From NCBI GenBank assembly GCA_050251055.1, contig JBFWNL010000002.1:384001-448000 (forward strand): a DNA stretch of 64,000 nucleotides. Reading direction: 5' to 3'. The notes beneath the pieces are model-generated. The model ran no database searches, was not told where the DNA came from, and saw only the letters and a list, made by a program, of their open reading frames with translations. Source of the DNA: Bacteriovoracia bacterium. GTDB lineage: Bacteria > Bdellovibrionota > UBA1018 > JBFWNL01. Both the position numbers and the translations under genes were made by a program. Shown here piece by piece: positions 7,235 to 64,000 of the stretch (its first letter is position 1; every line of letters begins with the position of its first letter).

Positions 7235-10200
7235 CTACGGAACGGACACGGAAATCGTCATCCCCGTGCTATTGTTCCAATAGCTCCCGCTGGCTGACAC
7301 CGTCTTCACCAACGCCCGTACCTGATAGCGATAACTGCCGGCGACGACCGCTGACTGCACATATGACGTCGCGATGGTCTGGCCGATACGCTGAAAGGCG
7401 CCGCCGGACGCGGAAGCCCGGTAGACGTGATAGATCACGCCCGCCGCTGCCGATGGCTCCCAGCTCAAGGTGACTGTACGAGCCCCCGTGGAACCGCTGA
7501 CCGCCGCTGCGACCCCGGAAGGGCCCGGGACCATTTGGGTGCGAAGGGTCGGATCACCCATCAATGGAACCGCAAAGGGAGCGGAGTCCAGGCTGGGGCA
7601 AGCCAATGTGCCCTCATAGAGTGGAGGAGTCGCCGAAAAACAGTATCCCGACGAAGGAGAAGCAGCCGCCCAGCTGTTGTTAATCGAGCGAAGCGAAGCA
7701 TAGCCGAGATTGAAACCCATCGGCAGGTGTTGGCCAAAAAAATTCACCAGTCGTCCCTGAGTGGAAGCCAGACCGTAGCCTTCGGCGGCCAGAGGCGCGC
7801 GGAGGAAGTTCTCCTGTACGTCCCAGTCGCCGAAATAGCTACCAATCAAGGTATAAAACACGCCGTACGTAGATTGCGATGCATACTCGTCGGTGCTAGC
7901 ACCGTTGAATCCTTGGAAAGCCCCGGCCCCCGCTCCATGCACCCATAGGTACGGAGATTGGTTCAGCACCGGCACCAATCCACGCTGGGTTGGCGGCAGG
8001 GAGTATATATTCGCGGGGCCTACGGCGGGGCTCGCATTTCGCCAACCGTCGGTCGCCGGCCAGTTTTCGTAGGCTCCCAACCGATCGGAGATCAGCGCCC
8101 GTGAAGGCACCTGGAAGGTCGCTATTCGGTAGGCGTGGTTTTTATCGAGATAGCGTCGCAGCAAGCGGATCTCGAGCTGGGCGTCGGTTTCGCCGGCGCG
8201 CCGGAACGCCAGGCCCTGGCTCTCTGGCCGAGCCATGTTCGACAGATCCACCCGCCCGACCTGAAGCTGGGCGCGAAAGCCGGGAATTTCGTTCTGATCG
8301 AACTTGCCGTCTCCCGGTACGTTCCGCAGCCGATCCGGAACCGGCGGAGGCAGCGTCACCACGGTTGACTGATTCGCTTGGCAATCCGTCCAAGCGCGTT
8401 CGCGCACGTAAGTATAAACACTCATGCCGGCGGGAATTTGCGCACAATTCAAATCGACGGGCTTGAGCATTTCGCCATAAAACCAATCCGAAGGATGGGC
8501 GCCGTAAGTGTCGTGCGTGATTGGCTTGGTACCGGCGTAAGGAACCGGAACCCGGCCCAGCAGGAAAACCGCTTTCGTATTGATCGTGTCTTGCTGATAC
8601 GCCCTCTGGATGGCGGCACGCACTCGCACGACCTGGCGGCCGCAATGACTTTGACCAGCGATCGTTTCGCAGCTGTCGGGATTCCCGTCGACGTGGCGAT
8701 CGACATCGAGGCGCACGACTTGCCAGCCGTCACCCTCTACGTCCGCAGTAAGTCGGGCGATCTCGGGGCCTAGGATCGGCGCCAACGTTCGCTCCACCAC
8801 GAGAACAAGCTTGCCGCGCGAATCCACGCGTGGAAGCTCAATTCCCGTATAGAGGTAACCGCGCCGGACGATGCCGGTCCCCGATGGATTGCGGCCGATC
8901 ACGGCGTATTCGTAGCCTTGTCCCACGGTGATCCCGGTATCCACGAATCCCACCGCGGATTGATATTCTGGAAAGAAAGGATCCGCGTGCATGATCCACT
9001 GGGGTTGGGATATGGGCGTCCATTGTGCGTCGTTCAGGCTTTTGCGGTAAACCTGGTACTGATTACTGCGGCTCATTTGTGGCCACTTCACGGTGATCCG
9101 TGCCGGCGAGGCGCTCACCTCGGCCTCCAGTTGCACGGTCGTGTCGACGGCGTGGGCGTCTTCGTGCGCGTCGATGTAGAAAGCGGGCAAGACCGCTTCC
9201 GTGACCCGGCCCGACGGTTCGCGTAACTGTACGCTCAACCGATGAACGGAGGTAAACCATGCACCGACGACTTGCCGAGACGTGCCGATTTCCGCCCGAA
9301 CATTACTGAAACTGAGCACGCGATCACGTGAACCCCGGACGTGTTCGCCAATGGGAGGAACCGACTCATCCACGAGCAGGCGTCCGTCCAAGTACCATTG
9401 GTAAGTTAACCCGACCGGAACGGGAGCGTCGATCGCGACCTCGAAAAAAGCGTTCTGGTGCCGGTGAAAAGTAATCGCTCCGCCCACCGGGGGTTCAGGG
9501 TATAGCCTTACTGGCAGACCGCTCGAAGCTTCCGGCGTGACCTGCACCTGCGCGGTCTGGGTGTCAACCGACCGGCTGTCGATCCCGACCCGCACGCTGT
9601 ATTCGCCGGCATCCGAGAACTCGACCGATTCGACTGTCAACGTGCTGGAGTCAAATTCACGGGTGATGCCCACGCGCTCGCTCGCCATGAGAGGGGCTCC
9701 GTCCTTCAGCCACTGCACCGGGGTACCGGCGACGGCGTAGAATCTCGCGCTCAAAGTCAGCCGTGCCCCTGCCACCAGGGTCACTCCCGCAGGCGCCTCC
9801 GCTATACGGGGGCTGAGCTCCGCCACGGCCGGCGCCCGCCCCCAGTTACCGAGAAGAATGGGAAGGTCACGCGAGTCCACGCGTCCATCGCCGTTGAGAT
9901 CGGCCGCGCCCCCGGTCGTGCCCCAACTGGCGAGAAAAGTCGCGTTGTCGGTGGCATCCACCTGCCCATCGCGGTTAATATCTCCCGGAACCGGCGACAC
10001 GGTAATCACGGCCGGCGAGCTAGTGGTGGTTCCGTGAGCGTTCGAAACCACCGCCTCGTAGCTACCCGCGAAGTCCGGATGACCGAAGAGAACGAGCTCT
10101 GGTCCAGCTTCACCCACCAGTGGCAGACCGTTGCGACGCCAGGCCACGCTCGCGCTAGACTCAGAATCGAAATCTACGTGTAGGCGCTCGACCCCTCCCA

Positions 10201-10390
10201 AAAAAACCGTGCGGGAAAATGGAGAAGCCGTGATGACCGGAGCCCCGGCGACGGAAGCAATGGAGCCCAGGTTTTGCTCGACCCAAGCGGATTGCGCTTC
10301 ACGCGCCGAAGGCCGGGCTCCCAAATCCAAGCAACCCGTTTGTGCAATTAAAGACAAACTCACTAGTGAACGTACCGCGAATAACCGCAT
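7235..10390 (-). CDS. Large lipoprotein: Ig-like domains, dockerin-like domain, FN3, gingipain/C25-like domain, C-terminal FN3
   Basis: Lipobox AQTG-C; GDINRDGQVD...DLNGDGRVD duplicated Ca loops; Ig motifs (QWLKDG...DAGEYSV); VFLLGRVPVP, QVGRVD and LMGDPTLR resemble the C25 fold. Confidence 0.7.
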   Translation of the reverse strand: MRLFAVRSLVSLSLIAQTGCLDLGARPSAREAQSAWVEQNLGSIASVAGAPVITASPFSRTVFLGGVERLHVDFDSESSASVAWRRNGLPLVGEAGPELVLFGHPDFAGSYEAVVSNAHGTTTSSPAVITVSPVPGDINRDGQVDATDNATFLASWGTTGGAADLNGDGRVDSRDLPILLGNWGRAPAVAELSPRIAEAPAGVTLVAGARLTLSARFYAVAGTPVQWLKDGAPLMASERVGITREFDSSTLTVESVEFSDAGEYSVRVGIDSRSVDTQTAQVQVTPEASSGLPVRLYPEPPVGGAITFHRHQNAFFEVAIDAPVPVGLTYQWYLDGRLLVDESVPPIGEHVRGSRDRVLSFSNVRAEIGTSRQVVGAWFTSVHRLSVQLREPSGRVTEAVLPAFYIDAHEDAHAVDTTVQLEAEVSASPARITVKWPQMSRSNQYQVYRKSLNDAQWTPISQPQWIMHADPFFPEYQSAVGFVDTGITVGQGYEYAVIGRNPSGTGIVRRGYLYTGIELPRVDSRGKLVLVVERTLAPILGPEIARLTADVEGDGWQVVRLDVDRHVDGNPDSCETIAGQSHCGRQVVRVRAAIQRAYQQDTINTKAVFLLGRVPVPYAGTKPITHDTYGAHPSDWFYGEMLKPVDLNCAQIPAGMSVYTYVRERAWTDCQANQSTVVTLPPPVPDRLRNVPGDGKFDQNEIPGFRAQLQVGRVDLSNMARPESQGLAFRRAGETDAQLEIRLLRRYLDKNHAYRIATFQVPSRALISDRLGAYENWPATDGWRNASPAVGPANIYSLPPTQRGLVPVLNQSPYLWVHGAGAGAFQGFNGASTDEYASQSTYGVFYTLIGSYFGDWDVQENFLRAPLAAEGYGLASTQGRLVNFFGQHLPMGFNLGYASLRSINNSWAAASPSSGYCFSATPPLYEGTLACPSLDSAPFAVPLMGDPTLRTQMVPGPSGVAAAVSGSTGARTVTLSWEPSAAAGVIYHVYRASASGGAFQRIGQTIATSYVQSAVVAGSYRYQVRALVKTVSASGSYWNNSTGMTISVSVP

Positions 10391-10486
10391 GTGATTCCCC
10401 CGTTTTGACTTAAAACCACCCGAGACTCCATCATCGGAAATTTTTGGTCGGCGGCGGATGTGTCAAACGGGATGAGGGAGTTATAT

Positions 10487-10502
10487 GTATTCCGGCGTAT
10501 TC
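10487..10502 (-). promoter_or_regulatory. Direct-repeat operator candidate GAATAC-GCCG-GAATAC
   Basis: Intergenic, about 96 nt upstream of ATG 10390; one of four co-oriented copies in the locus. Confidence 0.65.
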
Positions 10503-11610
10503 AAGGCAGCGGCTGGAGCACGTAGTTCCCGCCCAAGGTCGCTACGCTGCCGTTGGTTTCGATCGTACCGGTTTCGGTCAATACCCCATTCCCGGACACC
10601 GAGTAGGAACGGATCTTCTGCAGGGCGGGTTCGCTAATATAGAGAAATTTACCGCTCCTTGATAAAGCTAACACCCGATCCGGCCGCGAAGTAAGGGGCA
10701 CCGTCTGGACGATTGTCGGTGCATAGGTCGTGGAATCGAAGGTGATCGCGTAGAGAGAAGCATCTTCGTCGACCGAGAAAAGAATGCCGTCGGCGCCAAA
10801 CGCTCCACTCTGAAGGCCTAGGTCCGCAGTAGAAGAAACCAATCGGATGGTTTCCGAAGCATAATCGATCGCGTAAACCTGCGTGGCCGGGACGCCCCCG
10901 TTTAAACGCACGACCAAGAAGCTCTCGTCATGCGCCATGAAGAGCGCTGAAATGCCCGCCGTGGCGGTGATCGTGGATGTAATGGATAAAGCCGGCGCGG
11001 AAGCATCGACCCGAACCATATGAAGCGAGGCGGGAGTGCCGACGACGACGAACGCGTAACGGCCCCGCTGGGAATAGGCGGAGAGTGCGCTCGCGCCCTG
11101 GCCACCCAAGTCACCTGTGTACGCCAGTAGCGTATTGCTTGATCCGTCCGCCGCGATCTCCGAGAGATAGAGGTAAGAAGCCAAACCGGCGCCCAGCAAA
11201 GAAATGACTTTAGAGGTATCGGGAATCCAGTAGGCTCCCCGCCAACGGTGGGTGCCGTTCCCAAGGCTTTCACTGAAGACCGATTGCAGGCTCGCGGTCG
11301 CCGGGGTGAGCTGAAAAATAGTGGTAGTCGCGGCCGGACCCACGGCCCAGCCGAACGTGCCGGTGGAATCGAAAACCAGTTGGCTATTTCCGGTTCCGGT
11401 CGACGTTCCGGCGAGCGTCAACGCCCCCGATGACGGATCGATCGTGAAAACTCGATGTAGGTAGGCACCGGAGCTCAACACCGCAGCAATCAAGAACTCC
11501 TTCGCCAGTACTGGACGTTGGAAATTTGCCGAGCACCCGCTGACTAAAACCAGCAGTGCACCGCCGAATCCTTGGATCAGTCGAACCCGTGAAGAAAAGT
11601 AGGTCCCCAT
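10501..11610 (-). CDS. Beta-propeller lipoprotein (lactonase/6-phosphogluconolactonase-like fold)
   Basis: Lipobox LVSG-C; repeats FTIDPSSGALT, LSRSGKFLYI, YSVSGNGVLT; ATG at 11610 is the likelier start. Confidence 0.7.
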   Translation of the reverse strand: MGTYFSSRVRLIQGFGGALLVLVSGCSANFQRPVLAKEFLIAAVLSSGAYLHRVFTIDPSSGALTLAGTSTGTGNSQLVFDSTGTFGWAVGPAATTTIFQLTPATASLQSVFSESLGNGTHRWRGAYWIPDTSKVISLLGAGLASYLYLSEIAADGSSNTLLAYTGDLGGQGASALSAYSQRGRYAFVVVGTPASLHMVRVDASAPALSITSTITATAGISALFMAHDESFLVVRLNGGVPATQVYAIDYASETIRLVSSTADLGLQSGAFGADGILFSVDEDASLYAITFDSTTYAPTIVQTVPLTSRPDRVLALSRSGKFLYISEPALQKIRSYSVSGNGVLTETGTIETNGSVATLGGNYVLQPLP

Positions 11611-11636
11611 AGAGTATCGAAAGCATACGCCAAGTG

Positions 11637-13325
11637 TCATGACCGTGGAACGCAAATCGCCGTTGCTCTGGGTGGAGTGTCACAAGCACCTACCGCGTGT
11701 ACATAAATCTCCCATAGTGCGCCGGCGGAAGTTCCGTTCGGCTTCACGAATCCCCAGGCTCCGGTGTCACATCCTCCCGTATGCATCCCGTTCAAAGTGC
11801 AACTATAGTTCGCCAAAGTCATTCCGGAGAGCGTGCAGGTAGTGCCGCCTGGAGTGGACGTAGTGTCCGTGCAGGTGTGCTCCGCCCAGGTGATGTTCGG
11901 AGTTGGCTGGACCGGTCGGCACTTAGGGCGGGTCAGACCACTCGTACCATCCAGCCCTTCCATCACCTGTCCGGCCGGGCACACGTAATGGAGCGGTACA
12001 AAATAAGAATGGCCGTTATTATCTTTTGTAAGGAATTTTTCAGAAGGCACGGGCGTATTCGATCCCACCGGTGATTTAAAATTAAATCCCGTATTGAAAA
12101 CACAACCTGCTGGGGTCGACAAGTATCCCGGTTGCCCCACCCGACATTGCCCGCCACCGTGAGCCGGGACTTCGACCGAGTCTGCGACTAGTTTCTGACT
12201 AACGGTAACGTTGCCTTGAATGGAAACTCCACGAAAGTTACCGATGCCGAGATTTGTGATCCCCCAGCTATAACCGCCACCAGAGTAGTAGCCGCCTCGT
12301 AGATTGCCGCCAATACTTAAACCTTGATCGTCGACATTGTAAGCCGTACCCGGACCCACGTTGGTTCCTGCGCTCGCGATGGCAAGCCTCGGAAAGACGC
12401 ACCCCACGCCGGTTTGCCAGCTCCCGGTCAAAGCCTGGCAAACCGCTTCCCCGTCGGGAGCACCCGGCGCGCTCGGGGGCACCCCGGCCGGTGAGCGGCC
12501 AGAGAAAAGCTCGCAACCGGTAATCTGGCTACCGTTGGTTTGGACGGAAAGCAGGAACTCGTCTTGATACTCGGAGCCCCCCAGCGCGGCGAGATGACGC
12601 CCGGACGGATCCCCGGCGGCCGCCATTTGAAAGCGCGAAATGAACTCGTTCGTGGCTCCGGGTACTGGCACCGCATCGGCTAATCGCAACGTGGTTAGAA
12701 CCAAGCCCGGCGTAAGCGGCCGTCCCCGACGAACGCTCACAGACCCGACTCGAAGCTCCTCGAAATCCACGGGGGAAAATGTTCCGCCACCTCCTCCCGA
12801 ACTGCCGGATCCGGACGACGTTCCTCCCGGGCTCGTCGGCACGCGATTCCAGTTTCCTAGTAAGACCGCGAGGTCAGGGGATCCGACTCGCCCATCGTGA
12901 TTCAAGTCGGCCGGAAGCGAAGGGCCGGTCGCGTTCCAAGCGCCGAGCATTAGGGCAAGATCTGGAGAGCCGACTAACCCGTCGCCGTTGATGTCGCCTT
13001 CGGCAGCTGTTCCCGGTACGGGAGGAGCCGTCCCGGAAGCGCCTGCGAAAGATGTACCGCCTAAATTGGCCGTACAAGCTTTAGCTAGGATGAGTTTTAC
13101 TGAGTTCGCGGTGTCCTGGAACTCCGCCACCTGGGTGACCTTCTTCGATCCGCGCAGGCTCTGGGTGGTGATCTGGGTTTGGGTGGCAAGCAAGATTCCC
13201 ATCAAGCCCATCGCAACCAGCACCGAGATCAAGGATTGGCCATTGGACGAAAAGAAATTAGACTTCAATTTTTCCCCCGTAGAAACGAAAAAGCAAGGCG
13301 GCACGGAGCGAGGATTCTGGGGCAT
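11637..13325 (-). CDS. Prepilin-type protein with inserted dockerin-like domain and Cys-rich fibre-like C-terminus
   Basis: G|QSLISVLVAMGLMGILL class III signal (no Glu5); GDINGDGLVGSPDL...DLNHDGRVGSPDL; possible TTG start at 13268 after a GGGGGA RBS. Confidence 0.75.
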   Translation of the reverse strand: MPQNPRSVPPCFFVSTGEKLKSNFFSSNGQSLISVLVAMGLMGILLATQTQITTQSLRGSKKVTQVAEFQDTANSVKLILAKACTANLGGTSFAGASGTAPPVPGTAAEGDINGDGLVGSPDLALMLGAWNATGPSLPADLNHDGRVGSPDLAVLLGNWNRVPTSPGGTSSGSGSSGGGGGTFSPVDFEELRVGSVSVRRGRPLTPGLVLTTLRLADAVPVPGATNEFISRFQMAAAGDPSGRHLAALGGSEYQDEFLLSVQTNGSQITGCELFSGRSPAGVPPSAPGAPDGEAVCQALTGSWQTGVGCVFPRLAIASAGTNVGPGTAYNVDDQGLSIGGNLRGGYYSGGGYSWGITNLGIGNFRGVSIQGNVTVSQKLVADSVEVPAHGGGQCRVGQPGYLSTPAGCVFNTGFNFKSPVGSNTPVPSEKFLTKDNNGHSYFVPLHYVCPAGQVMEGLDGTSGLTRPKCRPVQPTPNITWAEHTCTDTTSTPGGTTCTLSGMTLANYSCTLNGMHTGGCDTGAWGFVKPNGTSAGALWEIYVHAVGACDTPPRATAICVPRS

Positions 13326-13443
13326 ATCCCGGGGGCCTCCGGGATCAAAGGAACGTCCGCACCGCCCTGCTCTTTCTTCTCCTACTAACTTGCTACGATT
13401 CGTTTCCCTTTTCGATTATTTCTGATCAAAAAAATCCACTTTT

Positions 13444-13459
13444 GTATTCCTACGTATTC
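13444..13459 (-). promoter_or_regulatory. Direct-repeat operator candidate GAATAC-GTAG-GAATAC
   Basis: Intergenic, upstream of the 11637..13325 pilin gene. Confidence 0.65.
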
Positions 13460-13477
13460 CACGTCCATTTTCCCTAT

Positions 13478-13708
13478 TCAAACCGGGTCGTTCCGTACAA
13501 AATAGCTGAGGCATTGAGCCGTGTCCGTAATTCTCGGAGCTTCCGGAAGCAATGCCTCCAATATCGCCGCGATTTCCTTGACCGGAGTTTCCTCAAACTC
13601 AGATGACCCGTTTTCGGCGCGGCTGGTGGTGGCCACCCATACCACCAGCCAACTGCAGACCGCTATCCGCCTCAATCTATGTCGACTCATGCTAGATCTT
13701 TCTTTCAT
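13478..13708 (-). CDS. Small hypothetical secreted protein, possibly a fragment
   Basis: AAAGGT-like RBS; signal-peptide-like N-terminus ending SRA-E. Confidence 0.35.
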   Translation of the reverse strand: MKERSSMSRHRLRRIAVCSWLVVWVATTSRAENGSSEFEETPVKEIAAILEALLPEAPRITDTAQCLSYFVRNDPV

Positions 13709-13794
13709 TTAACTACCTTTATCTCAGATAACCGCGGCTATACTTACGATCAGCTAGGTCGCGGACTCGTCTCGAAACGTGACTTCTATTCCTT

Positions 13795-14169
13795 TCACCA
13801 CCAGTGACAGTGGTAGGTATGCGCGGGCTGGACCTCGCACCCATATGCGCGCGCCATACAAAACGTGTGTCGAAGTATCAAACGCAGGTTGATACAGGCG
13901 TTGGGATTGACTTGGTACTCCGTCAAGTCGAGGCAATTATTGAACTCGCAAAACCCAGCTTGCGCTTCCAATGCGGCCTCGATGGCCTCACAGTTTGTTG
14001 TCCAATCCGGCGTGAAGTCCCGACATAGTCCATCCTCCTGATCTGCGAAAGGATCCATGAACTGTTCGGGCTCGGGGGGGCCTACAAAACCGGGATCTGG
14101 ATCTCCCGCCGCCGAGTGGGCCACCAAAAAAACGATTAGCGCCAAGAACAATGCACGAACTCGGTTCAT
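13795..14169 (-). CDS. Small secreted Cys-rich protein
   Basis: GGAGGAGG RBS; signal peptide (AHSAA); 8 Cys in the mature part. Confidence 0.7.
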   Translation of the reverse strand: MNRVRALFLALIVFLVAHSAAGDPDPGFVGPPEPEQFMDPFADQEDGLCRDFTPDWTTNCEAIEAALEAQAGFCEFNNCLDLTEYQVNPNACINLRLILRHTFCMARAYGCEVQPAHTYHCHWW

Positions 14170-14257
14170 CTCGCCTCCTCCTTCATGAGTGATTCACAAA
14201 ACGATAAGGCCCGGGGAGAGAAAAATCCTTCAACTTGCCAGGGCTACGGACGTATCC

Positions 14258-14273
14258 GTATTCGGCGGTATTC
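14258..14273 (-). promoter_or_regulatory. Direct-repeat operator candidate GAATAC-CGCC-GAATAC
   Basis: In the divergent spacer 14170-14416, about 88 nt upstream of ATG 14169; extra half-sites form an 11-bp inverted pair at 14289-14299 and 14357-14367. Confidence 0.65.
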
Positions 14274-14416
14274 CAAACGACGACGAGCGCCTGTATTCCG
14301 AAACCCGACGGAAAACCCCCCCTCAATACAACGACTTGGCAGGGGAAATCCCCGCTGGAATACAGGCCAAATTCGACACATTCCGCACACCCCTTTGTTT
14401 CTGGTAACTTAGGCAT

Positions 14417-15301
14417 ATGACCACTCGTAGTACGTTAGAGCGGCCATGCATCTTTGAATACAACGACTACCGCCGCTACTTGAAGGACTTCTACGCCCAT
14501 AAAAAGAGCCAGAAAGGCGCGGGGTTTTCCTTTCGCTCGCTCGCGAAAGCCGCGGGCTATAGCTCGCCGAACTTCTTCAAGCTCGTGATGGACGGACAGC
14601 GTAATATGTCCGACGAGAGCATCACCCGCATCGCGCTGGTGCTCAAACTCAGCAAGCAAGAAGCCGTATTTTTCTTTAGCCTAGTTCACATGAACCAGGC
14701 GCAGACGAGCGAGGAGCGCGAGCGTTTCGCGGCGGAACTGATGAACAGTGCCGGATTCCGCAAGATCCACCCGCTCAAGGAGGCCCAATATAACTTTTAC
14801 GCGAAGTGGTACATCGCCCCGATCCGTGAGCTCATCGCCACGGCTGACTTCCAAGAAGACCCGGAATGGATCGCGAAGCAGATGACCCCGCCGATCACCG
14901 CGCGGGAGGCGAAAGTCGCGCTCGACGAGCTCCAAACCCTGGGTATGGTCCGCCGTGACGAGTCCGGCCGGTTGCTCCAGGTGAACAACCTCGTGAACAC
15001 GTCGGACGAAGTGATGTCGACTTCCTTGAGCCGCTACCACAAACAAATGATCCGCCTAGCCGGCGAATCGATCGACCGTTTTTCCCGCTACGAGCGGGAG
15101 ATTTCCAGCGCGACTCTGTCCGTTTCCGAGGATTGCGCTAAGAAGGTGAAACAGCTCATCCAAGAGTTTCGCGAACAGATCTTGCAGCTCGCCGCCGAGG
15201 ACACCTCGACTTGCGAGCGGGTGTACCAAGTCAACTTCCAGTTGTTTCCCATGTCCGGGAAACCAGGGGGAACCGGGGGGACGAGCAATGGAGCCGTTTG
15301 A
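14417..15301 (+). CDS. TIGR02147/DUF4423-family protein with N-terminal HTH
   Basis: IFEYNDYRRYLKDFY...FSFRSLAKAAGYSSPNFFKLVMDGQRN; WYIAPIREL; C-terminal VYQVNFQLFP. Confidence 0.88.
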   Translation: MTTRSTLERPCIFEYNDYRRYLKDFYAHKKSQKGAGFSFRSLAKAAGYSSPNFFKLVMDGQRNMSDESITRIALVLKLSKQEAVFFFSLVHMNQAQTSEERERFAAELMNSAGFRKIHPLKEAQYNFYAKWYIAPIRELIATADFQEDPEWIAKQMTPPITAREAKVALDELQTLGMVRRDESGRLLQVNNLVNTSDEVMSTSLSRYHKQMIRLAGESIDRFSRYEREISSATLSVSEDCAKKVKQLIQEFREQILQLAAEDTSTCERVYQVNFQLFPMSGKPGGTGGTSNGAV

Positions 15302-15854
15302 TTCACGCTTTTTCCGCGGCAGCGCGGTACTGACCTTGCTGATCACATCCGCTTGCTCCGTGGGAGGTGGCGGCGGCGGAACTTCCGCCAGCAGCGCCGA
15401 CTTCGGCGGTTCCGGCGCCGGAAACCCTATTACATTTTCTGAAAACTTCGCCGTGCGGCTCTGTGAAAGCACCGCCGGGATCCCGATTGATGGCTTGGAC
15501 GCCCGCGACTGTGCTAACTCGGCGATGGACCATGTCGACATCACGCCCGCCTTGGGATTGCCCACGGTCATCGACACCCTTCGCCTCGCTAAACGGCTCG
15601 AGCTAGAAGGACGCTTGCGGCCCGGTCCCGACGCCGGAGCTTGCTTGGCTCAGATGAGCGGAGAGAGTTTCTGCAACATCGACATCGCGGTCGAAAGTTC
15701 CGGTGGCGGCGCGTACTCGTCGAACAGCTTCGAGCTGCCGGTGGAAACTCCCGTCGTGTCCTGCTACATCCCTCCGGTATGCCGGCAGGTCTTCAAACGG
15801 GTTCGCGGAATGGATTCCATCGACGCGCTCACGCCTCCTGCCTTATCGCCTTAG
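15288..15854 (+). CDS. Cys-rich lipoprotein with GxGNP motif
   Basis: Lipobox ITSA-C; Gly/Ser linker; GSGAGNP; overlaps the regulator stop codon. Confidence 0.7.
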   Translation: MEPFDSRFFRGSAVLTLLITSACSVGGGGGGTSASSADFGGSGAGNPITFSENFAVRLCESTAGIPIDGLDARDCANSAMDHVDITPALGLPTVIDTLRLAKRLELEGRLRPGPDAGACLAQMSGESFCNIDIAVESSGGGAYSSNSFELPVETPVVSCYIPPVCRQVFKRVRGMDSIDALTPPALSP

Positions 15855-15866
15855 TAGTTTCGGACA

Positions 15867-15882
15867 GGATACGCCGGAATAC
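15867..15882 (+). promoter_or_regulatory. Direct-repeat operator candidate GGATAC-GCCG-GAATAC
   Basis: Intergenic, 84 nt upstream of ATG 15967; near-identical to the 10487 site in sense orientation. Confidence 0.65.
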
Positions 15883-15966
15883 GTTTCCCATTCGCGCGCG
15901 ATCGGCATCGTTGAGCCAAAGCCAAAAACCGCGCATCCTACCTAAGATAGCATCAAGGGGGGATTC

Positions 15967-18729: not shown

Positions 18730-19226
18730 AGACGCACGGCCAGCACCCACAGATAGGGGGGTTCACGTTGATCGAAACCACCATCACGCTGGCGATCCTG
18801 ATGTCGGCCATCTGGGCTCATGCAAGCATGGAATCCCAATCGCGACGCTGGCGTGAAAACGTGGCTCGCCGCTGGCAGGCGCAAAACACGGCGGAGAATA
18901 TCGCCGACATGATCGGGACACTGGATGCGGAAGGATTTAAAGCACTGATCCTGACTCGTGCTACGGGTTTGAGCTACCTCGAACCGATGCGGTCACCGGA
19001 TCACCCTTGGTTGTCGGCTTGGCTCCACCGTCCGGACCAGGAAGCCATAGAGGTTTCCGTCGCCCTCTACTATCCGACCCACCCGTCGGTGCGCCTAGAC
19101 ACCCTTCCCGTCTCGCTTGCCGATTTCAATCCGTTCTCCTTTGAACGCGAAATCACGGTGACCGTGTCTTATCTTAACCCTTCGTCAAGGACATATGTAT
19201 GGACCACGCGCCTTTCCCACGATTGA
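18726..19226 (+). CDS. Type IV minor pilin/pseudopilin (PilV-like)
   Basis: G|FTLIETTITLAIL; ATGA overlap with the upstream stop gives start 18726. Confidence 0.75.
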   Translation: MKTHGQHPQIGGFTLIETTITLAILMSAIWAHASMESQSRRWRENVARRWQAQNTAENIADMIGTLDAEGFKALILTRATGLSYLEPMRSPDHPWLSAWLHRPDQEAIEVSVALYYPTHPSVRLDTLPVSLADFNPFSFEREITVTVSYLNPSSRTYVWTTRLSHD

Positions 19227-51348: not shown

Positions 51349-51406
51349 AGTTTCCTACGCTTAACTCTTCGGAAGAAAAAAGGACTTCTCAATAAACGTC
51401 AATATC

Positions 51407-52427: not shown

Positions 52428-52456
52428 TTGACTCGCCGCATCTATAGAGCTAAAAT
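52428..52456 (+). promoter_or_regulatory. Sigma70-type promoter candidate
   Basis: TTGACT-N17-TAAAAT upstream of 52512. Confidence 0.55.
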
Positions 52457-52511
52457 AAGTTAAGCAGATCCATTGCGCCTTGGCGCTAGCGGTACGTAAG
52501 CAGGAGAAGAG

Positions 52512-54916: not shown

Positions 54917-54927
54917 CGAAATCACCC

Positions 54928-57006: not shown

Positions 57007-57055
57007 TTCCTAAATGCATTCGCCATACCCGTCGTAGCTCGGCTAAAATACGGAT

Positions 57056-58243: not shown

Positions 58244-58247
58244 TGGG

Positions 58248-58264
58248 GAAAACGGCGGGAAAAC
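58248..58264 (+). promoter_or_regulatory. Direct-repeat operator candidate GAAAAC-GGCGG-GAAAAC
   Basis: Intergenic, upstream of the propeller gene; one of four 11-bp-period copies in the locus. Confidence 0.5.
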
Positions 58265-58470
58265 GCTTCTATTTACGCATTGCTTCCAGTTCTGGAGTTT
58301 TTCTCGCACCTAGATGAGTATGGACTCATTGAGAGTGCAGCGCTCCCACGAATGGGGCGGAGCGCTCCGAGTGGTCACGGGCATCCCCGTCAGCTCCTTA
58401 GACTCAGTACCCAAATACGGACCCGTGGCCACTCGCCATTTCTTTCCCGAGAAATGGCGCAAAAGATGGG

Positions 58471-59631
58471 GTGAATAGTTACAAGAAAGCTGGAAGAATA
58501 GGCCAAGTGAATCCGCGTTCCCCATCTCGCACTCGTTGGGTTAGCCTGACTCTGATCGTGACCGTAGGCGTTCTGGTCACCGCCCTGGGATGTGGTGCGC
58601 AGTTCTTGCGTTCGGTTCGGGCGCATTCGTTGGGATTCGTCACCTTGATCAATGCAGTGGGATCGTTTCGAATCGACGGAACGACGGGTTTGATTTCGGA
58701 ATATTCAGAAACCGCCACCACCGGCAGCTTCCACGACCTAGCCATCCGCTCGGACGGATCCAAGTTCTTTGGCAGCGGACCCTCCTCCTCCGCCCGTGCC
58801 TACCAGATCACCCCGCGCCCCGTGTCCCTGAGCGCACTGACTTCACCGGCCGTGGCCTTCATGCTAAGCGCCCTACGCTGGACCCGCTCCGACCGGTTTC
58901 TGATCGCCGGTACCTCCGACGGAAAAGTTGAAACTTACGGAACTTCGGCCACCAGCGAGCTTGCCCTCATTCAAACGCAAAGCGCTGGAGGATCCGGTAG
59001 CCTCGTACTAAAGATCGCGACTCACCCGGAAGGAAGAGTAGTCGCCGTGGTTAGCTCGAGCTCTCCCCGCCTGACGACCTACCTGCTGAGCGACGAAGGG
59101 CTGCTCACGCCCGCATTCCAATATGCCAACGTCGGCGGATCCCAAGCTATTGAGCTGCATCCCTCGGGAAGTTTTCTCTACACCGGCCTCGTCTTATCGA
59201 GCTACCGCGTGGACGGGCAAAGCGGAGAGGTGGTGAAAATCCAGACCGTCTCCCCGGCGTTCGTCACGAGCTACTCCGCGCTTACACCCGAAGGAAGCTG
59301 GCTGTTCGTGGCGAACTATTCGGGCTCCACCCACTTCAGCACGATCAAAAGTTTCTCCGTGGACGCCAACAGCGGGCTCCTCACGGAATCCGCCAGCTTC
59401 TCCTTGGAGGAATACGAGCAAATTCTATCCTTGGCTCCGCATCCGGACGGTGGATTCTTGTACGGGCTCACCGATCAGAAGAAAATCCATGTATTCGCGA
59501 TCAACGCCACGGACGGGAGTCTCCGACAGGTCGGCGTACAGGCGACCACGGGGAACGTATCAAACTTCGACGCGCGCTCGCGCCTTTTCACGATCCGCTT
59601 CCAGGAAAGCATCACCTCGCTCCAATACTGA
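58471..59631 (+). CDS. Beta-propeller lipoprotein (lactonase-like), paralog of 10501..11610
   Basis: Lipobox TALG-C; HPEGRVV, HPSGSFLY, TPEGSWLF and HPDGGFLY blades. Confidence 0.78.
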   Translation: MNSYKKAGRIGQVNPRSPSRTRWVSLTLIVTVGVLVTALGCGAQFLRSVRAHSLGFVTLINAVGSFRIDGTTGLISEYSETATTGSFHDLAIRSDGSKFFGSGPSSSARAYQITPRPVSLSALTSPAVAFMLSALRWTRSDRFLIAGTSDGKVETYGTSATSELALIQTQSAGGSGSLVLKIATHPEGRVVAVVSSSSPRLTTYLLSDEGLLTPAFQYANVGGSQAIELHPSGSFLYTGLVLSSYRVDGQSGEVVKIQTVSPAFVTSYSALTPEGSWLFVANYSGSTHFSTIKSFSVDANSGLLTESASFSLEEYEQILSLAPHPDGGFLYGLTDQKKIHVFAINATDGSLRQVGVQATTGNVSNFDARSRLFTIRFQESITSLQY

Positions 59632-59674
59632 AAGTCCGGAATGCGTCTTTTTTGACCCCCCACTAGGCAATTCA

Positions 59675-59691
59675 GTAAACACACAGAAAAC
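59675..59691 (+). promoter_or_regulatory. Direct-repeat operator candidate GTAAAC-ACACA-GAAAAC
   Basis: 91 nt upstream of ATG 59783. Confidence 0.55.
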
Positions 59692-59782
59692 ACTACTTCG
59701 CAAAAAATCCACCAAAACATCGGCATTTTCTGCGGTTTTACTCATGATTGAAACAGGGGAACAAATCGTAAGGGGGCTCAGG

Positions 59783-62116
59783 ATGAAACGTGACCAAGGC
59801 GGTTTCAGCTTACTGGAAGTGATGGTGGGCATGGGGGTAGCCACGGCGCTCTCCCTCGGGGTAGCCGGAGTCATCTCCTCTACGGCCAAACAAACCAAGA
59901 TCGTCGACAACCGCTCACGCGCCGCCCTCGCTTCGAACTCAATCCAGCAGATGCTCGGCAACGCTTCGGTCTGCGCCCATGCCTTCCGCCGGGTCGACCA
60001 TGCCTCCTCCGAGCCCGCCCGCGTGAACCTCACCGACCAGCCCCTGCCCTACACGGAGAGCGCGGAAGGCGCGCACGCCAAGGTCGAGGGCGCCGTTGGC
60101 GTACCGCAAGGGAACTTGGCGTTTCAAGCCATTTACCTAGGCCCCTCGCGCGTGGCATCGTTTGGGGCGCTCCTACCGGATACCTCCACTTTAAAAGTCG
60201 AAGAACTCCAATTCGTGCGTCTCGATTCTCCCAGCCCAACCCCTGGGGGAGGAGCGTTCATCACGCCGTTTGAACTGCGGCTGACCGTCTCCTCCCCCAG
60301 CCCCCAAGGGGCCACCAAATATAAATATTTTTTGAACGTCGAAACCCTTAGAGCCGATGGCCTGGAGCCGATCCGAGGATGTTCGATCCAAAACGGAATC
60401 GCGGGTAGCGGTAGCGGCACGCCCGGACGCTTGGCCAAGTGGGCCAACGCCACGACTCTCACCGATAGCGTCGTCCACGAACGTAACGGTAACATCGGGA
60501 TCGGAACCACCAATCCCGACACGGCGCTCACGATTGGCAGCTACCGAAGCACCGATCGTCTGCGCGTCAACACCAGCGACCTAGGTTTGTTGGTCGAAGT
60601 GAAGAATCCCAGTTCTCCCACCGAAGCGGATGTTGCGCAGCTCTTCGCCGGTATCCTGGAAAAAAACACTCTGGTCACCGGCGACCGCGCGCAGCTGCGG
60701 TTGGGCTTCAAGGCCAATAACGATGGAACGCCGGGAGATCTCCGAACCTTCGCGGCCGTGGAAGGCGTGGCGGAAAACGCCCAAGGCGCCACCCGCCGAA
60801 CGGGCCTGCGGTTACTCACCTCCGACACCGGTCACTCGCAGGCGCAGGAGCGCCTTCGCATCAGCGGCGCGGGGAAGGTGGGTATCGGCACGGCGGCGCC
60901 GCAGGAAGCCTTACAGATCGGACCCGAATGGACGTTTCGCGACGGCTACGGCGCGGGCAAATGGATCGTCTTCAACGGATTCTGGGAAGGCAGCAAATGG
61001 CAGTATCTAACTACGAATCCGATGTCGTTCCTGCACTTCGGTTACGACGGAAAAATCTCGTTCGGAGCGAACCCGACCGCGCCGGCGGGTAGCCAGACGA
61101 CCACTCCCCCAAAACACCTCACGATCGCCAACGACGGCAATATCGGCATCGGCACGGACAACCCCGCGGACCGCCTGGTGGTGCGAGGGCCGGCGCCTTC
61201 GCTGCGCGTGATCGATTCGGGCGCGGCGGCGGATTATGCGCAAGTGGGCGCAATTAGCGGCGCGGTAAGCGTACTTTACGGCGCCAACGCCGCGGCCTCC
61301 GGCGGGTACGGATACGTAGGCACCCAGACGAATCACCCGCTACGTTTTTACACCAATGCCGGGGCGGCCGGAGCGCCCGCCCTGACTATCACCAACAACG
61401 GCCTGATCGGCGTCGGCTCGTCGACACCGACCGAGAAGCTCGAAATCCTCGCGGGCGACCTCGCCATGAGCAACAACACCTCCATTCGTATGCGCGATAA
61501 CACGGGAACCAAGCGGGCCGCCTTGAGCTACACCTACGCCAACAACCTGCAGCTATTCAATCGGGCGGCGACCGGCGACGTGCAAATCGGCAACACGAAC
61601 AACCCCTCCGGCGAAGTGCACTTTTACACTGCGTCGACGAATGGCTCCGGGATCGAGGTACGTCGGGCCACCATCGGTGCCCAGGGCCTCACTCTCGTCA
61701 ACAACGGCAAAATTTACGTGGACAACATCCAGATTTGCTCCATCGCCGGTTGCACATCGAGTTCGGACCGCCGCCTGAAGGAAAACATCACCTCGTTAGA
61801 CGCCGACGAGTCGCTGGCGAAAATCCTCGGCCTGCAAGGGGTGACATACGACTGGAAAGATCGGGCTCGCTTCGGGGCCTCCCGTCAAATCGGCCTCATC
61901 GCCCAGGAAGTAGAGCGCATCTATCCCGAGGCCGTGGTGACGAATGAAAAAACGGGGTTGAAATCCATCGCCTACGATCACCTCGTGGCGCCCTTGATCG
62001 AGGCGGTCAAGGCCCTTTACGAGAAACTGGGCGGACGCTTGGAAAAGCTGGAGCGCGAGAACGCCGAGCTCAAAGCGCGGCTGGCACGAGTCGAAGCCGC
62101 GCTGGCGAAACGATAA
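59783..62116 (+). CDS. Prepilin-headed fibre protein with C-terminal S74 intramolecular chaperone
   Basis: G|FSLLEVMVGMGV; GNIGIGTTNP-type shaft repeats (4); S|DRRLKENI...IGLIAQEVE S74 domain; terminal coiled coil. Confidence 0.88.
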   Translation: MKRDQGGFSLLEVMVGMGVATALSLGVAGVISSTAKQTKIVDNRSRAALASNSIQQMLGNASVCAHAFRRVDHASSEPARVNLTDQPLPYTESAEGAHAKVEGAVGVPQGNLAFQAIYLGPSRVASFGALLPDTSTLKVEELQFVRLDSPSPTPGGGAFITPFELRLTVSSPSPQGATKYKYFLNVETLRADGLEPIRGCSIQNGIAGSGSGTPGRLAKWANATTLTDSVVHERNGNIGIGTTNPDTALTIGSYRSTDRLRVNTSDLGLLVEVKNPSSPTEADVAQLFAGILEKNTLVTGDRAQLRLGFKANNDGTPGDLRTFAAVEGVAENAQGATRRTGLRLLTSDTGHSQAQERLRISGAGKVGIGTAAPQEALQIGPEWTFRDGYGAGKWIVFNGFWEGSKWQYLTTNPMSFLHFGYDGKISFGANPTAPAGSQTTTPPKHLTIANDGNIGIGTDNPADRLVVRGPAPSLRVIDSGAAADYAQVGAISGAVSVLYGANAAASGGYGYVGTQTNHPLRFYTNAGAAGAPALTITNNGLIGVGSSTPTEKLEILAGDLAMSNNTSIRMRDNTGTKRAALSYTYANNLQLFNRAATGDVQIGNTNNPSGEVHFYTASTNGSGIEVRRATIGAQGLTLVNNGKIYVDNIQICSIAGCTSSSDRRLKENITSLDADESLAKILGLQGVTYDWKDRARFGASRQIGLIAQEVERIYPEAVVTNEKTGLKSIAYDHLVAPLIEAVKALYEKLGGRLEKLERENAELKARLARVEAALAKR

Positions 62117-62152
62117 GCCGCGCGGGGCCCAGCTCCCAGCTGGCCTAAAGCC

Positions 62153-62169
62153 GTTTACTAGGTGTTTTC
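62153..62169 (-). promoter_or_regulatory. Direct-repeat operator candidate GAAAAC-ACCTA-GTAAAC, reversed relative to the regulator gene
   Basis: Intergenic, 59 nt upstream of 62229. Confidence 0.55.
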
Positions 62170-62228
62170 TGCATCCATAAAACCGTGTCCTGGATGACGC
62201 ATTTTAGCCGGAAAAGAGGGCAGATATA

Positions 62229-63128
62229 ATGTCTCTAAGGGGCCAATTCTTGAAAAAAAATTCCGTCCAGGAAAAATCCGCCCGCGGGCCGGTGATCTAC
62301 CAGTATCAAGACTACCGGGCTTTTCTCCGCGATTACTACCGGCACATGAAGCTGCTGCGGCCGGAGTTCTCCTTCCGCTTCCTCGCCAAACGAGGCGGCT
62401 TCAAGTCCTCCGCGATGTACAAGCTCGTAATGGAAGGGAAACGCAACCTCTCGCCGCGGGGGGCGACGAAGATCGCGCGGGCACTGAACCTCGGGCGACG
62501 CGAGTCGGATTTTTTCAAAAACCTCGTGAACTTCAACCAGTCCAAAACACCGCTACAACGGGAGCACTTCGCGGGCGAGCTCCTCGAAAGCGAAAAATAC
62601 AAGCAAACGCATCCGCTGAACGAAGCGCATTTCAACTATTTCTCGCGCTGGTTCTCGATCCCAATCCGGGAGATGGTCGGCGCCCAGGGTTTCCGCGACG
62701 ATCCGAACTTCATCGCCAAGCAGCTGATTCCCGCCATCGCCACCCATGACGCCAAGAAAGCCTTGAGCGAGCTGCAGGCGCTGGGGATCTTGGCGCGCAA
62801 TCCCGACACCGGCCGGCTCAAGCACAACACGTATTCGATCCTGACCCAAGACGAGGTGACTTCTTCCTACGCCGCGCAATTTCACCGCGAAATGATCCGG
62901 CTTGCGGGCGAAGCGATCGATCGCATCCCCAAGCCAGATCGTGACATTTCCGCCGCCACCTTCCTGCTGTCGGAAGAGGCCGCCCGCCAGTTCAAAGAAA
63001 CGATCCGCGCCATGCGCGACAAGCTCATGGACATCGTCGCCCACGACGACCGCAAGTCGCCGCGGGTCTATCAGGTGAATTTTCAGTTTTTTCCGCTCAG
63101 CCATGTCTTTCCGGAGGGCGAAGAATGA
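62229..63128 (+). CDS. TIGR02147/DUF4423-family protein with N-terminal HTH
   Basis: IYQYQDYRAFLRDYY...FSFRFLAKRGGFKSS; WFSIPIREM; VYQVNFQFFP; clear paralog of 14417..15301. Confidence 0.88.
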   Translation: MSLRGQFLKKNSVQEKSARGPVIYQYQDYRAFLRDYYRHMKLLRPEFSFRFLAKRGGFKSSAMYKLVMEGKRNLSPRGATKIARALNLGRRESDFFKNLVNFNQSKTPLQREHFAGELLESEKYKQTHPLNEAHFNYFSRWFSIPIREMVGAQGFRDDPNFIAKQLIPAIATHDAKKALSELQALGILARNPDTGRLKHNTYSILTQDEVTSSYAAQFHREMIRLAGEAIDRIPKPDRDISAATFLLSEEAARQFKETIRAMRDKLMDIVAHDDRKSPRVYQVNFQFFPLSHVFPEGEE

Positions 63129-63673
63129 TGGTTGCTTTCGGGGTTTTTTCGAAGTGGCGCGGGGTCGGGCCGGCGATGCTCGTCCTCATCGGGCTCCTGT
63201 CCGGTTGCGCGGGCACCGACACCGTTCATACCGGAACGATCATCGGCAACCCCGTTGATCCGGACACCATTCCGCCATTGATTCACTCCGAAGTCTTGCG
63301 GCAAACCATCTGTGACCGCGTCATCGAATGCGGCGTTCCTAATATAGAAATGGAAGGATGCCTGCGGGGAGTGAATGGAACCCGCAAAACCGTGCCGCGC
63401 CTTGGCCTGTCTTCCGTCTTGTACTATGATTTCGGAGCCGTGGTGAAAAGCGAACGCCAGGGGTTTTTACGCGCCAACGAGGCCGCCGCCATTCACTGCC
63501 GAAAGGCGGTGGAACACACGAGCTGCGCGGAGATCCACAACCTAAAGATCCAGCATTTCGGGTATGAACCCCTCAATACGCTGCTCGAGGAAACCGACGG
63601 ATACTGCTTGAACTTCTTCAACTACCTGGGAGCGACGAATCCGTTCGGTGGCGCGACAGGGAACGGCCACTGA
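63125..63673 (+). CDS. Cys-rich lipoprotein with GTIIGNP motif
   Basis: Lipobox LLSG-C; ATGA overlap with the regulator stop; Cys spacing resembles 15288..15854. Confidence 0.75.
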   Translation: MMVAFGVFSKWRGVGPAMLVLIGLLSGCAGTDTVHTGTIIGNPVDPDTIPPLIHSEVLRQTICDRVIECGVPNIEMEGCLRGVNGTRKTVPRLGLSSVLYYDFGAVVKSERQGFLRANEAAAIHCRKAVEHTSCAEIHNLKIQHFGYEPLNTLLEETDGYCLNFFNYLGATNPFGGATGNGH

Positions 63674-63691
63674 GATGGCCACAGAAGATCA

Positions 63692-63708
63692 GTAAACAGT
63701 TTGCAAAC
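63692..63708 (+). promoter_or_regulatory. Direct-repeat operator candidate GTAAAC-AGTTT-GCAAAC
   Basis: 83 nt upstream of ATG 63792. Confidence 0.55.
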
Positions 63709-63791
63709 AAAAACCACGAATCCAAGCTCTCCCCGCTCGATCTTCGTCCGCCGTATACGCTATTTTTAGGAACACCTAGAAGGAGTTCCCA

Positions 63792-64000
63792 ATGAAGAAA
63801 ACAATCGCTGGCATCCTCATGTTTTTAGCCTTAACCGGATCGACCATTTCCCTGAATGCTCCGTCGGCCCGTGCCGATGGCGGCGGGCTAGGTTGCGTCT
63901 ACTATCCAGCGGAAATTTTACCGCTTATCGAACAACTGGAAGAAGCTCACTTCATTTGTCTAATTGACTGCCGCAACGTTGCCGGGAACAACTACACGCT
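63792..64000 (+). CDS. Secreted Cys-containing protein (partial, runs off the window)
   Basis: AGGAG RBS at 63781; MKKTIAGILMFLAL...ARA-D signal peptide; open to the window end. Confidence 0.7.
   Translation, partial: MKKTIAGILMFLALTGSTISLNAPSARADGGGLGCVYYPAEILPLIEQLEEAHFICLIDCRNVAGNNYT

Follow-up and report, generated by a model that had tools for sequence, protein, structure and literature searches.

Tandem repeats, coupled lipoproteins and pilin-headed cargo at two TIGR02147 loci of a Bacteriovoracia bacterium: candidate self-regulated envelope-protein cassettes

The window examined here, a stretch of 64,000 nucleotides (nt) from a Bacteriovoracia bacterium (G000:C2:384001-448000 of a 3.77-Mb, 21-contig assembly that is 93.5% complete and has ~59% GC), contains two loci organized around genes of the TIGR02147/DUF4423 family. 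We propose that each locus is a self-contained, locally regulated envelope-protein cassette, in which the TIGR02147 protein would bind tandem repeats and the cargo would be displayed via pilin-type heads, a reading that we consider probable though by no means secure. That the loci may be self-regulated local regulons is a well supported but indirect conclusion, drawn from sequence patterns.

Locus A spans 7235-19834 and locus B 58248-64000, with an operator-like tandem from 58246. In both, a TIGR02147/DUF4423 gene overlaps the gene of a lipoprotein, and further genes encode a second lipoprotein with a propeller, a protein headed like a prepilin and a small, Cys-rich protein that is secreted; every open reading frame (ORF) named for the two loci in a preliminary description of this DNA is present at its coordinates. 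Because housekeeping genes stand between them (acetyl-CoA carboxylase, RelA/SpoT, lipoate and 2-oxoacid dehydrogenase genes and RecQ, at ~20-58 kb of the window), A and B are separate islands. The closest named relative of the window regulator is a Bdellovibrionia metagenome bin. The core genes are:

14417-15301, + strand: regulator A; TIGR02147 262.8 bits, DUF4423 141.2 bits; recognition helix starts SPNFF
15288-15854, + strand: coupled lipoprotein A; 14-nt overlap with the regulator A gene; lipobox, then a tag ending ...GAGNP; six-Cys helical domain
62229-63128, + strand: regulator B; TIGR02147 237.6 bits, DUF4423 114.8 bits; recognition helix starts SSAMY
63125-63673, + strand: coupled lipoprotein B; 4-nt ATGA overlap with the regulator B gene; lipobox, then a tag ending ...GTIIGNP; six-Cys domain

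With cut-offs of 50 bits for TIGR02147 (NCBIfam) and 30 bits for DUF4423 (Pfam PF14394), both regulators belong to the TIGR02147 family, and model positions 4-270 and 4-271 of 272, respectively, are aligned.

Tandem repeats and the recognition helix

A locus-specific repeat precedes nearly every transcription unit of the two loci, the regulator gene's own included, and the loci behave as self-contained cassettes, as suggested earlier. The repeats are:

10487-10503, + strand: candidate operator A1, GTATTCC-N3-GTATTCA, upstream of 7235-10390
13444-13460, + strand: candidate operator A2, GTATTCC-N3-GTATTCC, ~120-135 nt upstream of 11637-13325
14258-14363, no strand assigned: candidate operator cluster A3 in a divergent promoter region; GTATTCG-N3-GTATTCC at 14258-14274, GTATTCC at 14293-14299, inverted GTATTCC at 14357-14363
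15864-15882, - strand: candidate operator A4, GTATTCC-N3-GTATCC, ~85-100 nt upstream of 15967
58246-58265, + strand: operator-like tandem B1, GGGAAAACG twice, 11-bp period, start of locus B
58434-58459, no strand assigned: perfect inverted repeat, CGCCATTTCT-N6-AGAAATGGCG, directly before the propeller B gene
59673-59692, + strand: candidate operator B2, CAGTAAACA and CAGAAAACA, 11-bp period, 90-110 nt upstream of 59783
62151-62170, - strand: candidate operator B3, AGAAAACAC then AGTAAACGG, 57-78 nt upstream of the regulator B gene
63690-63709, + strand: candidate operator B4, CAGTAAACA and TTGCAAACA, 11-bp period, 82-102 nt upstream of 63792

Eleven copies of GTATTCC occur in the window against 4.81 expected, and 7 of the 11, all of them intergenic, fall within 10487-15882. 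Here, ahead of four transcription units, they form tandems of 10-bp period at 10487, 13444, 14258 and 15864-15882, and the single copies at 14293 and 14357 make up a distant inverted pair. From the locus A sites it is ~85-160 nt downstream to the start codon of each of 7235-10390, 11637-13325, 13795-14169, the regulator gene and 15967-18729. For locus B the consensus is (C)AG(T/A)AAACA, present twice with an 11-bp period. A half-site copy of the inverted repeat at 58434-58459 was seen ~950 nt past the window end, before the next large Cys-rich gene.

Across the 3.77-Mb genome, paired GTATTC-type hexamers, tandem or palindromic, occupy 21 sites, 15 of which are intergenic: 4 in locus A, 3 before two other clade I regulators (11-bp spacing), 5 palindromic and 3 orphans. 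The direct repeats had been described as private to each locus; tandems are indeed found in both, but the GTATTC half-site of locus A is common to other paralog loci, and the arrangement alone is private. The palindrome CGTATTC-N5-GAATACG has five copies in the genome, all in a single TIGR02147 locus (G000:C8:11095-21315), and one of them precedes a pilin operon, encoding a Kelch-propeller pilin-headed protein, 9 kb from the regulator. An orphan tandem, GTATTCT-N4-GTATTC at G000:C3:155049, has a dockerin-repeat secreted protein on one side and a secretin-ATPase operon on the other; the nearest TIGR02147 gene is 33 kb away. This position hints that a secretion or pilus machine may be controlled in trans. 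A separate feature of the genome is its 40 islands with GC <=25% over >=150 nt (for example C7:170054-170478, C4:164621-165039 and C1:211056-211461); 16 of these are located within 1 kb of a TIGR02147 gene, mostly as the promoter region of clade II paralogs, and many of the remainder precede secreted-protein genes.

The strongest evidence that the repeats may be operators of the regulators, although indirect, is the co-variation of half-site and recognition helix. A total of 109 TIGR02147 proteins, from this genome and from 79 loci elsewhere, were aligned with hmmalign, the first five residues of the recognition helix were read, and for the 105 rows kept after removal of identical duplicates and unusable rows the upstream 370 nt were scanned for GTATTC/GAATAC. 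At least two such hexamers precede 16 of 29 genes with an SPN[FY] helix and 2 of 76 with other helices (Fisher 2.5e-9, a value that overstates our case because related genomes are not independent); for the other genomes alone the counts are 13/23 and 1/52. Within the window, regulator A (SPNFF) goes with the GTATTC half-site and regulator B (SSAMY) with a different one. Direct tandems of 10-11 bp recur in five loci of other genomes (L050, L077, L085, L086 and L087); several of the genomes that show such tandems are labelled Myxococcota, Bradymonadales, Chitinivibrionales or Deltaproteobacteria in their records. It is unlikely that intergenic DNA was kept by descent at protein identities of 35-48%.

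Regulator fold and the coupled lipoprotein

The preliminary description gave TIGR02147 an HTH-like (helix-turn-helix) N-terminus, and the AlphaFold2 (AF2) model of regulator A, with a mean predicted local distance difference test (pLDDT) score of 89.9, supports it and adds a winged helix. Model residues 15-102 resemble an XRE-type HTH domain (3pxp, Z 8.3, root mean square deviation (rmsd) 3.1 over 82 aligned residues; HigA 2ict, Z 7.5; DdrO, Z 7.1) and contain the five-helix domain of XRE/Cro-cI type regulators. Residues 120-195 resemble an ArsR/MarR-type winged helix (2jsc, Z 8.1, rmsd 2.7, 70 residues). Fold Z values of 7-8 are middling, yet they are consistent across dozens of rows. Pfam reported no HTH family on the regulators at E<=0.01. 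According to their translations, the regulators carry neither a signal peptide nor a membrane segment.

The HTH fold also matches that of controller (C) proteins from restriction-modification systems (C.AhdI 1y7y, C.BclI 2b5a and C.Esp1396I 3ufd; Foldseek 0.95-1.0 over 72-83 columns, with a probability of 1.0 for C.AhdI and C.BclI). Like these and like autoregulating XRE/Cro/cI regulators, the TIGR02147 proteins have repeats before their own gene and an overlapping downstream gene. Unlike C proteins, however, they are ~290 aa long with an additional winged helix and helical tail, their sites are 10-11-bp direct repeats as well as palindromes, and the cargo consists of exported envelope proteins; membership was judged by fold.

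The genome contains 36 TIGR02147 matches, 33 of them full-length and above the cut-off, and 30 of 41 genomes of the order (this one counted) carry the family, with 0-21 matches each compared with 36 here. No function has been described for TIGR02147/DUF4423; the only full-text mention found is an entry in a proteome table, with Bd3700 given as a DUF4423 protein that is raised when growth takes place in prey (PMC12546842). The table passage of that paper makes no reference to operators, a tagged partner or a link to pilins.

Both coupled lipoproteins display a Gly-rich stretch after the lipobox that ends in G-N-P. A lipobox with the invariant Cys is evident from the translations of all four lipoproteins of the window (ITSAC-S, LLSGC-A, LVSGC-S and TALGC-G). 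Lipoproteins A and B align to one six-Cys helical family that has no Pfam or NCBIfam model; among 1.84 billion proteins it counts 531 representatives at E<=1e-3, of which 181 reach E<=1e-10. Searched with its single sequence, lipoprotein B found only itself; the profile search did recover relatives. Known families were not assigned to the partners: Pfam gave no family above cut-off for 43 partner proteins (two marginal matches below), NCBIfam none for 41 (one marginal match). The family DUF6184, to which a protein-atlas lead pointed at 0.89, was rejected, as Pfam reported no DUF6184 at E<=1 in 14 members. The AF2 model of lipoprotein A is poor (pLDDT 62.6), and no solved chain reached Z 5, the best being 3.0.

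The pairing of a regulator gene with a gene for an exported partner extends to relatives within and beyond the order:

Own genome, 30 loci (of 33 regulators): downstream ORF in 27; start by +10 nt of the stop in 17; signal peptide in 23; GNP/GNGG-type tag in 14
Same-order relatives, 40 loci: downstream ORF in 33; start by +10 nt in 28; signal peptide in 28; GNP/GNGG-type tag in 19
Other lineages, 39 loci: downstream ORF in 36; start by +10 nt in 31; signal peptide in 33; GNP/GNGG-type tag in 26, by a rule that overlooks at least two clear GNP cases and five variants in this row

The regulator and exported-partner pair is therefore a general part across the sampled genomes. The tag of clade I relatives has the form G-[ST]-[ED]-x-G-N-P and follows the lipid cysteine at a distance of several residues; as its third codon positions vary freely (34 loci), selection acts on the peptide. 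Among 185 pattern-defined lipoproteins of the genome, 8 have GNP within 32 residues of the cysteine, and 6 of these 8 adjoin a TIGR02147 gene, in agreement with the expected enrichment of such lipoproteins near the family. Since the lipoprotein is exported and the regulator lacks a signal peptide or membrane segment, a direct sensor pair of the two is not supported, nor is the earlier suggestion that the lipoprotein shares in switching, and the lipoprotein is more simply the first cargo of the operon. The partners of some TIGR02147 genes (loci L027, L044 and others, with clade III-type regulators) are secreted proteins with a GNGG-type tag instead of GNP, and some of these carry HExxH (HEAGH, HETMH), suggesting metalloprotease-like cargo.

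Cargo proteins and their distribution

The further genes of the two loci encode exported proteins of several kinds:

7235-10390, - strand: exported protein, 1051 aa, lipobox-like N-terminus; Ig_3 52.6, I-set 46.6, Dockerin_1 38.2 bits; last gene of locus A
10501-11655, - strand: propeller lipoprotein A, lipobox LVSGC-S; Lactonase propeller 24.9 bits; paralog-family E 1e-54
11637-13325, - strand: pilin-headed protein A, 562 aa, head G-QSLISVLVAMG lacking Glu5; Dockerin_1 23.9 bits; Cys-rich C-terminal part with 15 Cys
13795-14169, - strand: small Cys-rich secreted protein A, 124 aa, 8 Cys, signal peptide; no family
15967-18729, + strand: right-handed beta-helix protein, 920 aa, prepilin-like head lacking Glu5; Dockerin_1 27.7, Beta_helix 42, NosD 36.8 bits
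18726-19226, + strand: small canonical prepilin, 166 aa, G-FTLIE; head profile E 4.4e-10; overlaps the preceding gene
19199-19834, + strand: small canonical prepilin, 211 aa, G-FGLLE; head profile E 5.1e-8
58471-59631, + strand: propeller lipoprotein B, lipobox TALGC-G; Lactonase propeller 41.6 bits; paralog-family E 9.4e-89
59783-62116, + strand: prepilin-headed fibre B, 777 aa, head G-FSLLEVMVGMG, tail-fibre-like G-I-G-T repeats, Peptidase_S74, coiled-coil end; head profile E 1.3e-10
63792-64000+, + strand: small Cys-rich secreted protein B, 100 aa, 6 Cys, signal peptide; extends 94 nt past the window

Both propeller lipoproteins score above the Pfam cut-off of 21.7 bits for the lactonase-type seven-bladed propeller and fall into one family of 28 paralogs, recovered from the genome with a profile built on four propeller lipoproteins. 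Pfam at E<=0.01 assigns them to lactonase and WD40-type families only, with no PilY1/PilC. The propeller A gene starts within ~30 nt of the stop of 11637-13325; a complex prediction for the two proteins scored 0.00, which is no verdict and was counted for neither side.

The features of a prepilin, namely a short basic leader, a Gly in position -1, a Glu in position +5 and a hydrophobic helix ~20 residues long, are all present in 59783-62116, 18726-19226 and 19199-19834. Residue +5 is Ser in 11637-13325 and Thr in 15967-18729, and on this basis their heads are pilin-like, not canonical prepilins; the head of 11637-13325 was overlooked by Pfam and by the prepilin-head profile and was recovered with a loose pattern. 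GspK-type tip pseudopilins of type II secretion likewise lack Glu at +5. The window proteins are far larger than these and carry dockerin repeats. Paired dockerin type I repeats (Pfam cut-off 22.9 bits) occur in three locus A proteins, 7235-10390, 11637-13325 and 15967-18729.

The fibre-like protein of locus B carries Peptidase_S74 (PF13884) at 71.9 bits (cut-off 22) with the SDxxxK motif as SDRRLK. Bdellovibrio bacteriovorus has 13 S74-type mosaic adhesive trimeric (MAT) fibres, in which a signal peptide is followed by a conserved beta-rich N-terminal domain of ~130 aa (PMC10769870). As far as these fibres are described there, 59783-62116 is alike in its C-terminal Peptidase_S74 chaperone with SDxxxK behind a repeat stalk, but has a prepilin head in place of the signal peptide and beta-rich domain; the main text of that paper does not use the word pilin and names type IV pili only as a possible interplay. 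A second comparison is with the type IVa pili of Myxococcus xanthus, which have multiple minor-pilin/PilY1 sets at the pilus tip (PMC7541494; 10.1101/2021.07.28.454143). The similarity is that these, too, are alternative gene sets in which small pilin-like proteins go together with a large, propeller-containing adhesin. Here, in contrast, it is the large proteins that bear the prepilin head, the propeller forms a lactonase-type lipoprotein of its own, and each set has its own TIGR02147 regulator. Among 19 other pilin-headed proteins of the genome the C-terminal parts are diverse: one has Kelch repeats, one Gly_rich_2, and 17 have no family beyond N_methyl. The genome encodes two prepilin peptidases (Peptidase_A24), four secretins and eight T2SSE ATPases above cut-off; it also has a type IVa pilus set and a type II secretion-like cluster that includes four small pseudopilins. 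Display of the cargo on a type IV pilus is plausible, as is a pseudopilus-like anchor; it is only from the N-terminal heads that the label of pilus-tip adhesin derives.

A pairwise BLASTP comparison of the two loci qualifies the earlier statement that the same five components recur. All five kinds of protein are present in both, but the regulators alone are clearly alike (44% identity); the propellers match over 103 residues (E 1e-5), the coupled lipoproteins are barely alike (E 0.035), the pilin-headed proteins align in the head only (E 0.13), and the small Cys-rich proteins are unrelated (E 1.4). The components are therefore the same kinds of protein, not five conserved genes.

Around the 33 regulators of this genome, neighbours were defined by family profiles, as BLASTP clustering at 1e-6 split divergent families. 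Propellers lie within 5 kb of a TIGR02147 gene in 14 of 28 cases (shuffled mean 2.98, maximum 10 in 2000 trials), and 13 of the 33 regulators have one at this distance. The head profile detects 41 prepilin-head ORFs, 14 of them at such a distance from a TIGR02147 gene, where shuffling gave a mean of 4.2 and at most 12 in 1000 trials, an enrichment that is somewhat inflated because pilin genes cluster; 12 of 33 regulators have such a head nearby. With a loose pattern, 8 further heads lacking Glu5 were found (2 probably false), 4 of which are within 5 kb of a regulator. The full set of propeller and prepilin head within 5 kb is seen at 7 regulators with canonical heads and at 9 when heads lacking Glu5 are counted. 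In the locus maps a core recurs in which the regulator has at its side a large Cys-rich gene with a pilin head, in many cases divergently oriented, and the propeller adjoins. The enrichment anticipated for these neighbours was accordingly observed for propellers and prepilin heads in this genome, but not at 79 loci elsewhere, as detailed below. Small Cys-rich proteins number 10 of 40 within 5 kb against 3.75 expected, and 4 of these 10 are the coupled lipoproteins themselves; the class is not clearly enriched, its two window members are unrelated, and it is not demonstrably part of the module.

Locus A genes score low on the codon-usage model of the genome (54 for the 920-aa gene, compared with 250 for the 728-aa RelA/SpoT gene), which fits fast-evolving or acquired genes, and two of them were overlooked by a crude gene caller. 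Elsewhere in the window, 5938-7230 (+ strand) encodes a 430-aa protein with a 415-bit match to MATCAP (microtubule-associated tyrosine carboxypeptidase, PF08014), an unexpected family for a bacterium, and 46568-48691 (+ strand) encodes a 707-aa protein with a TadE/G-like Flp-pilus N-terminus (25.2 bits) amid housekeeping genes.

Alternative readings and a model

Several observations weigh against the cassette reading. Four of the five components are without detectable likeness between the loci in pairwise BLASTP. The heads, on which display would depend, are not all strong: N_methyl in 59783-62116 scores 21.0 bits, 0.2 below the Pfam cut-off of 21.2, and 11637-13325 lacks Glu5. The paired G[TAG]AAAC pattern of locus B has 11 intergenic matches in the genome, 3 of them in the ~0.7 kb of locus B spacers, where a fourth, variant copy is also found, but it was written after the sites had been seen. 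As several paralogs share the GTATTC half-site, cross-talk is possible, and the word private is valid for spacing and orientation only. A best 7-mer enrichment of p<=1e-8 is reached in 3 of 400 random gene-centred windows and in 2 of 33 TIGR02147 loci, with the locus A value of 1.7e-10 at the edge of the random-window control; because control windows reach similar values, most paralog loci lack a clear private 7-mer by this crude test. Sigma-70-type promoters in 10300-16100 number 3 compared with 2.1 in shuffles, and none stands out. The sequencing runs listed for this DNA include no RNA run, and two DNA runs that may be its source. A Mantel test detected no co-variation between the identities of regulators and those of propellers (r 0.03, p 0.40), and hence there is no sign of whole-cassette duplication. 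Finally, the ~6-7 kb around 79 TIGR02147 genes of other genomes (21 + 19 + 39) contain no prepilin head and one marginal propeller (E 3.7e-4), so this lineage may, as sampled, be the only one with the pilin and propeller cargo; the other-lineage sample was drawn with a single protein query and is biased towards clade I relatives.

These last two results are what would be expected if only the regulator and the tagged lipoprotein formed a functional module, and the propeller, pilin-headed and Cys-rich genes gathered in variable islands without shared control. We regard such a two-gene module as unlikely, even though no TIGR02147 gene is located within 5 kb of 14 of 28 propellers and 27 of 41 prepilin heads, the small Cys-rich class shows no clear enrichment, and the weak codon-usage scores of locus A genes are frequent in island genes. 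Within each window locus one and the same repeat precedes the propeller, pilin-headed and regulator units, the locus on contig C8 is arranged likewise with its pilin operon 9 kb off, and the enrichment of propellers and prepilin heads exceeds every shuffle. A reading of the repeats as promoter-architecture elements, or as sites of another factor, with a different role for the TIGR02147 protein, strikes us as quite improbable. It could account for the orphan GTATTC tandem before the secretin-ATPase operon, far from any TIGR02147 gene, and for the clade II genes behind AT-rich islands, which are maybe a general promoter type for secreted proteins; yet across the genomes of several phyla a different recognition helix goes with a different half-site, the arrangement of sites is locus-specific, and the TIGR02147 protein has two folds of DNA-binding type.

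A third possibility accepts the regulon and differs in the role of the heads, which would serve as class III signal peptides, or would anchor in the inner membrane an envelope assembly resembling a pseudopilus or bindosome and tied together by the propeller lipoprotein and the dockerins. Archaeal sugar-binding proteins carry prepilin-type signals, the basis of the bindosome analogy. The two locus A heads lacking Glu5, the dockerin pairs that three locus A proteins have near their head or their signal peptide, and the presence of four small pseudopilins in a type II secretion-like cluster beside the type IVa pilus set all accord with this view, which we take seriously but doubt: heads without Glu5 would also fit a tip subunit, as in GspK-type pseudopilins, and the two small canonical prepilins of locus A resemble minor-pilin sets. 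A toxin-antitoxin-like or prophage lysogeny-type module, with a HigA/cI-like repressor and an exclusion lipoprotein, was rejected, and we give it next to no credence. Repressor and lipoprotein pairs do exist in temperate phages, and the N-terminal domain resembles HigA antitoxins and controller proteins. The partner, however, is exported and highly variable and is kept as a tagged lipoprotein across phyla; there are 33 genome copies, housekeeping genes lie between the loci, and no phage gene families were detected among the 57 window proteins scanned.

In the cassette model that we favour, the core is a cytoplasmic TIGR02147 protein with an XRE-type HTH and a winged helix, whose gene overlaps that of the tagged lipoprotein. 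It would bind tandem heptamers one helical turn apart, GTATTCC-N3-GTATTC(C) in locus A and (C)AG(T/A)AAACA twice at 11 bp in locus B, ~60-135 nt upstream of most transcription units of the locus. Because the repeats precede its own unit and most others, the regulator would control its own level together with the whole local gene set. The cargo in this lineage comprises the propeller lipoprotein and large Cys-rich proteins with type IV prepilin-like N-termini, the outer parts of which vary by locus (an S74-chaperone tail-fibre in B; dockerin and beta-helix in A). Prepilin peptidase would cut the heads, and the proteins would be shown on, or anchored through, a type IV pilus or a type II secretion-like filament. 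The 33 regulators, 7-9 with the full cargo set, could form a repertoire of separately addressable surface-protein sets.

A bolder extension, which we put forward as speculation with little expectation that it holds in full, is that the 33 paralogs are a near-orthogonal switch bank with a single regulator per operator arrangement, each locking one pilin-anchored set on or off through feedback at its own promoter, and that the invariant tag, present in at least three phyla, is a handle by which a shared envelope machine places or reads the first product of each cassette. If this were true, a predatory cell could hold many adhesin sets and show just one or a few.

The TIGR02147/DUF4423 family is large, occurs in Bdellovibrionota, Myxococcota and Fibrobacterota, and has no assigned function; this genome offers a concrete, testable role for it: candidate operators with base-level predictions, a helix pattern that predicts the half-site, and a defined set of local genes. 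A second widely conserved and unexplained feature worth testing is the lipoprotein tag, which is almost restricted to neighbours of TIGR02147 genes. The cassettes link the family to pilin-type heads with interchangeable outer domains, one of which has the build of the fibres with which Bdellovibrio binds prey. A pilin-type anchor with one regulator per cassette would be one answer to the question of how predatory bacteria attach such fibres and select among them, and the cassettes give a testable idea of surface-protein switching in such bacteria.

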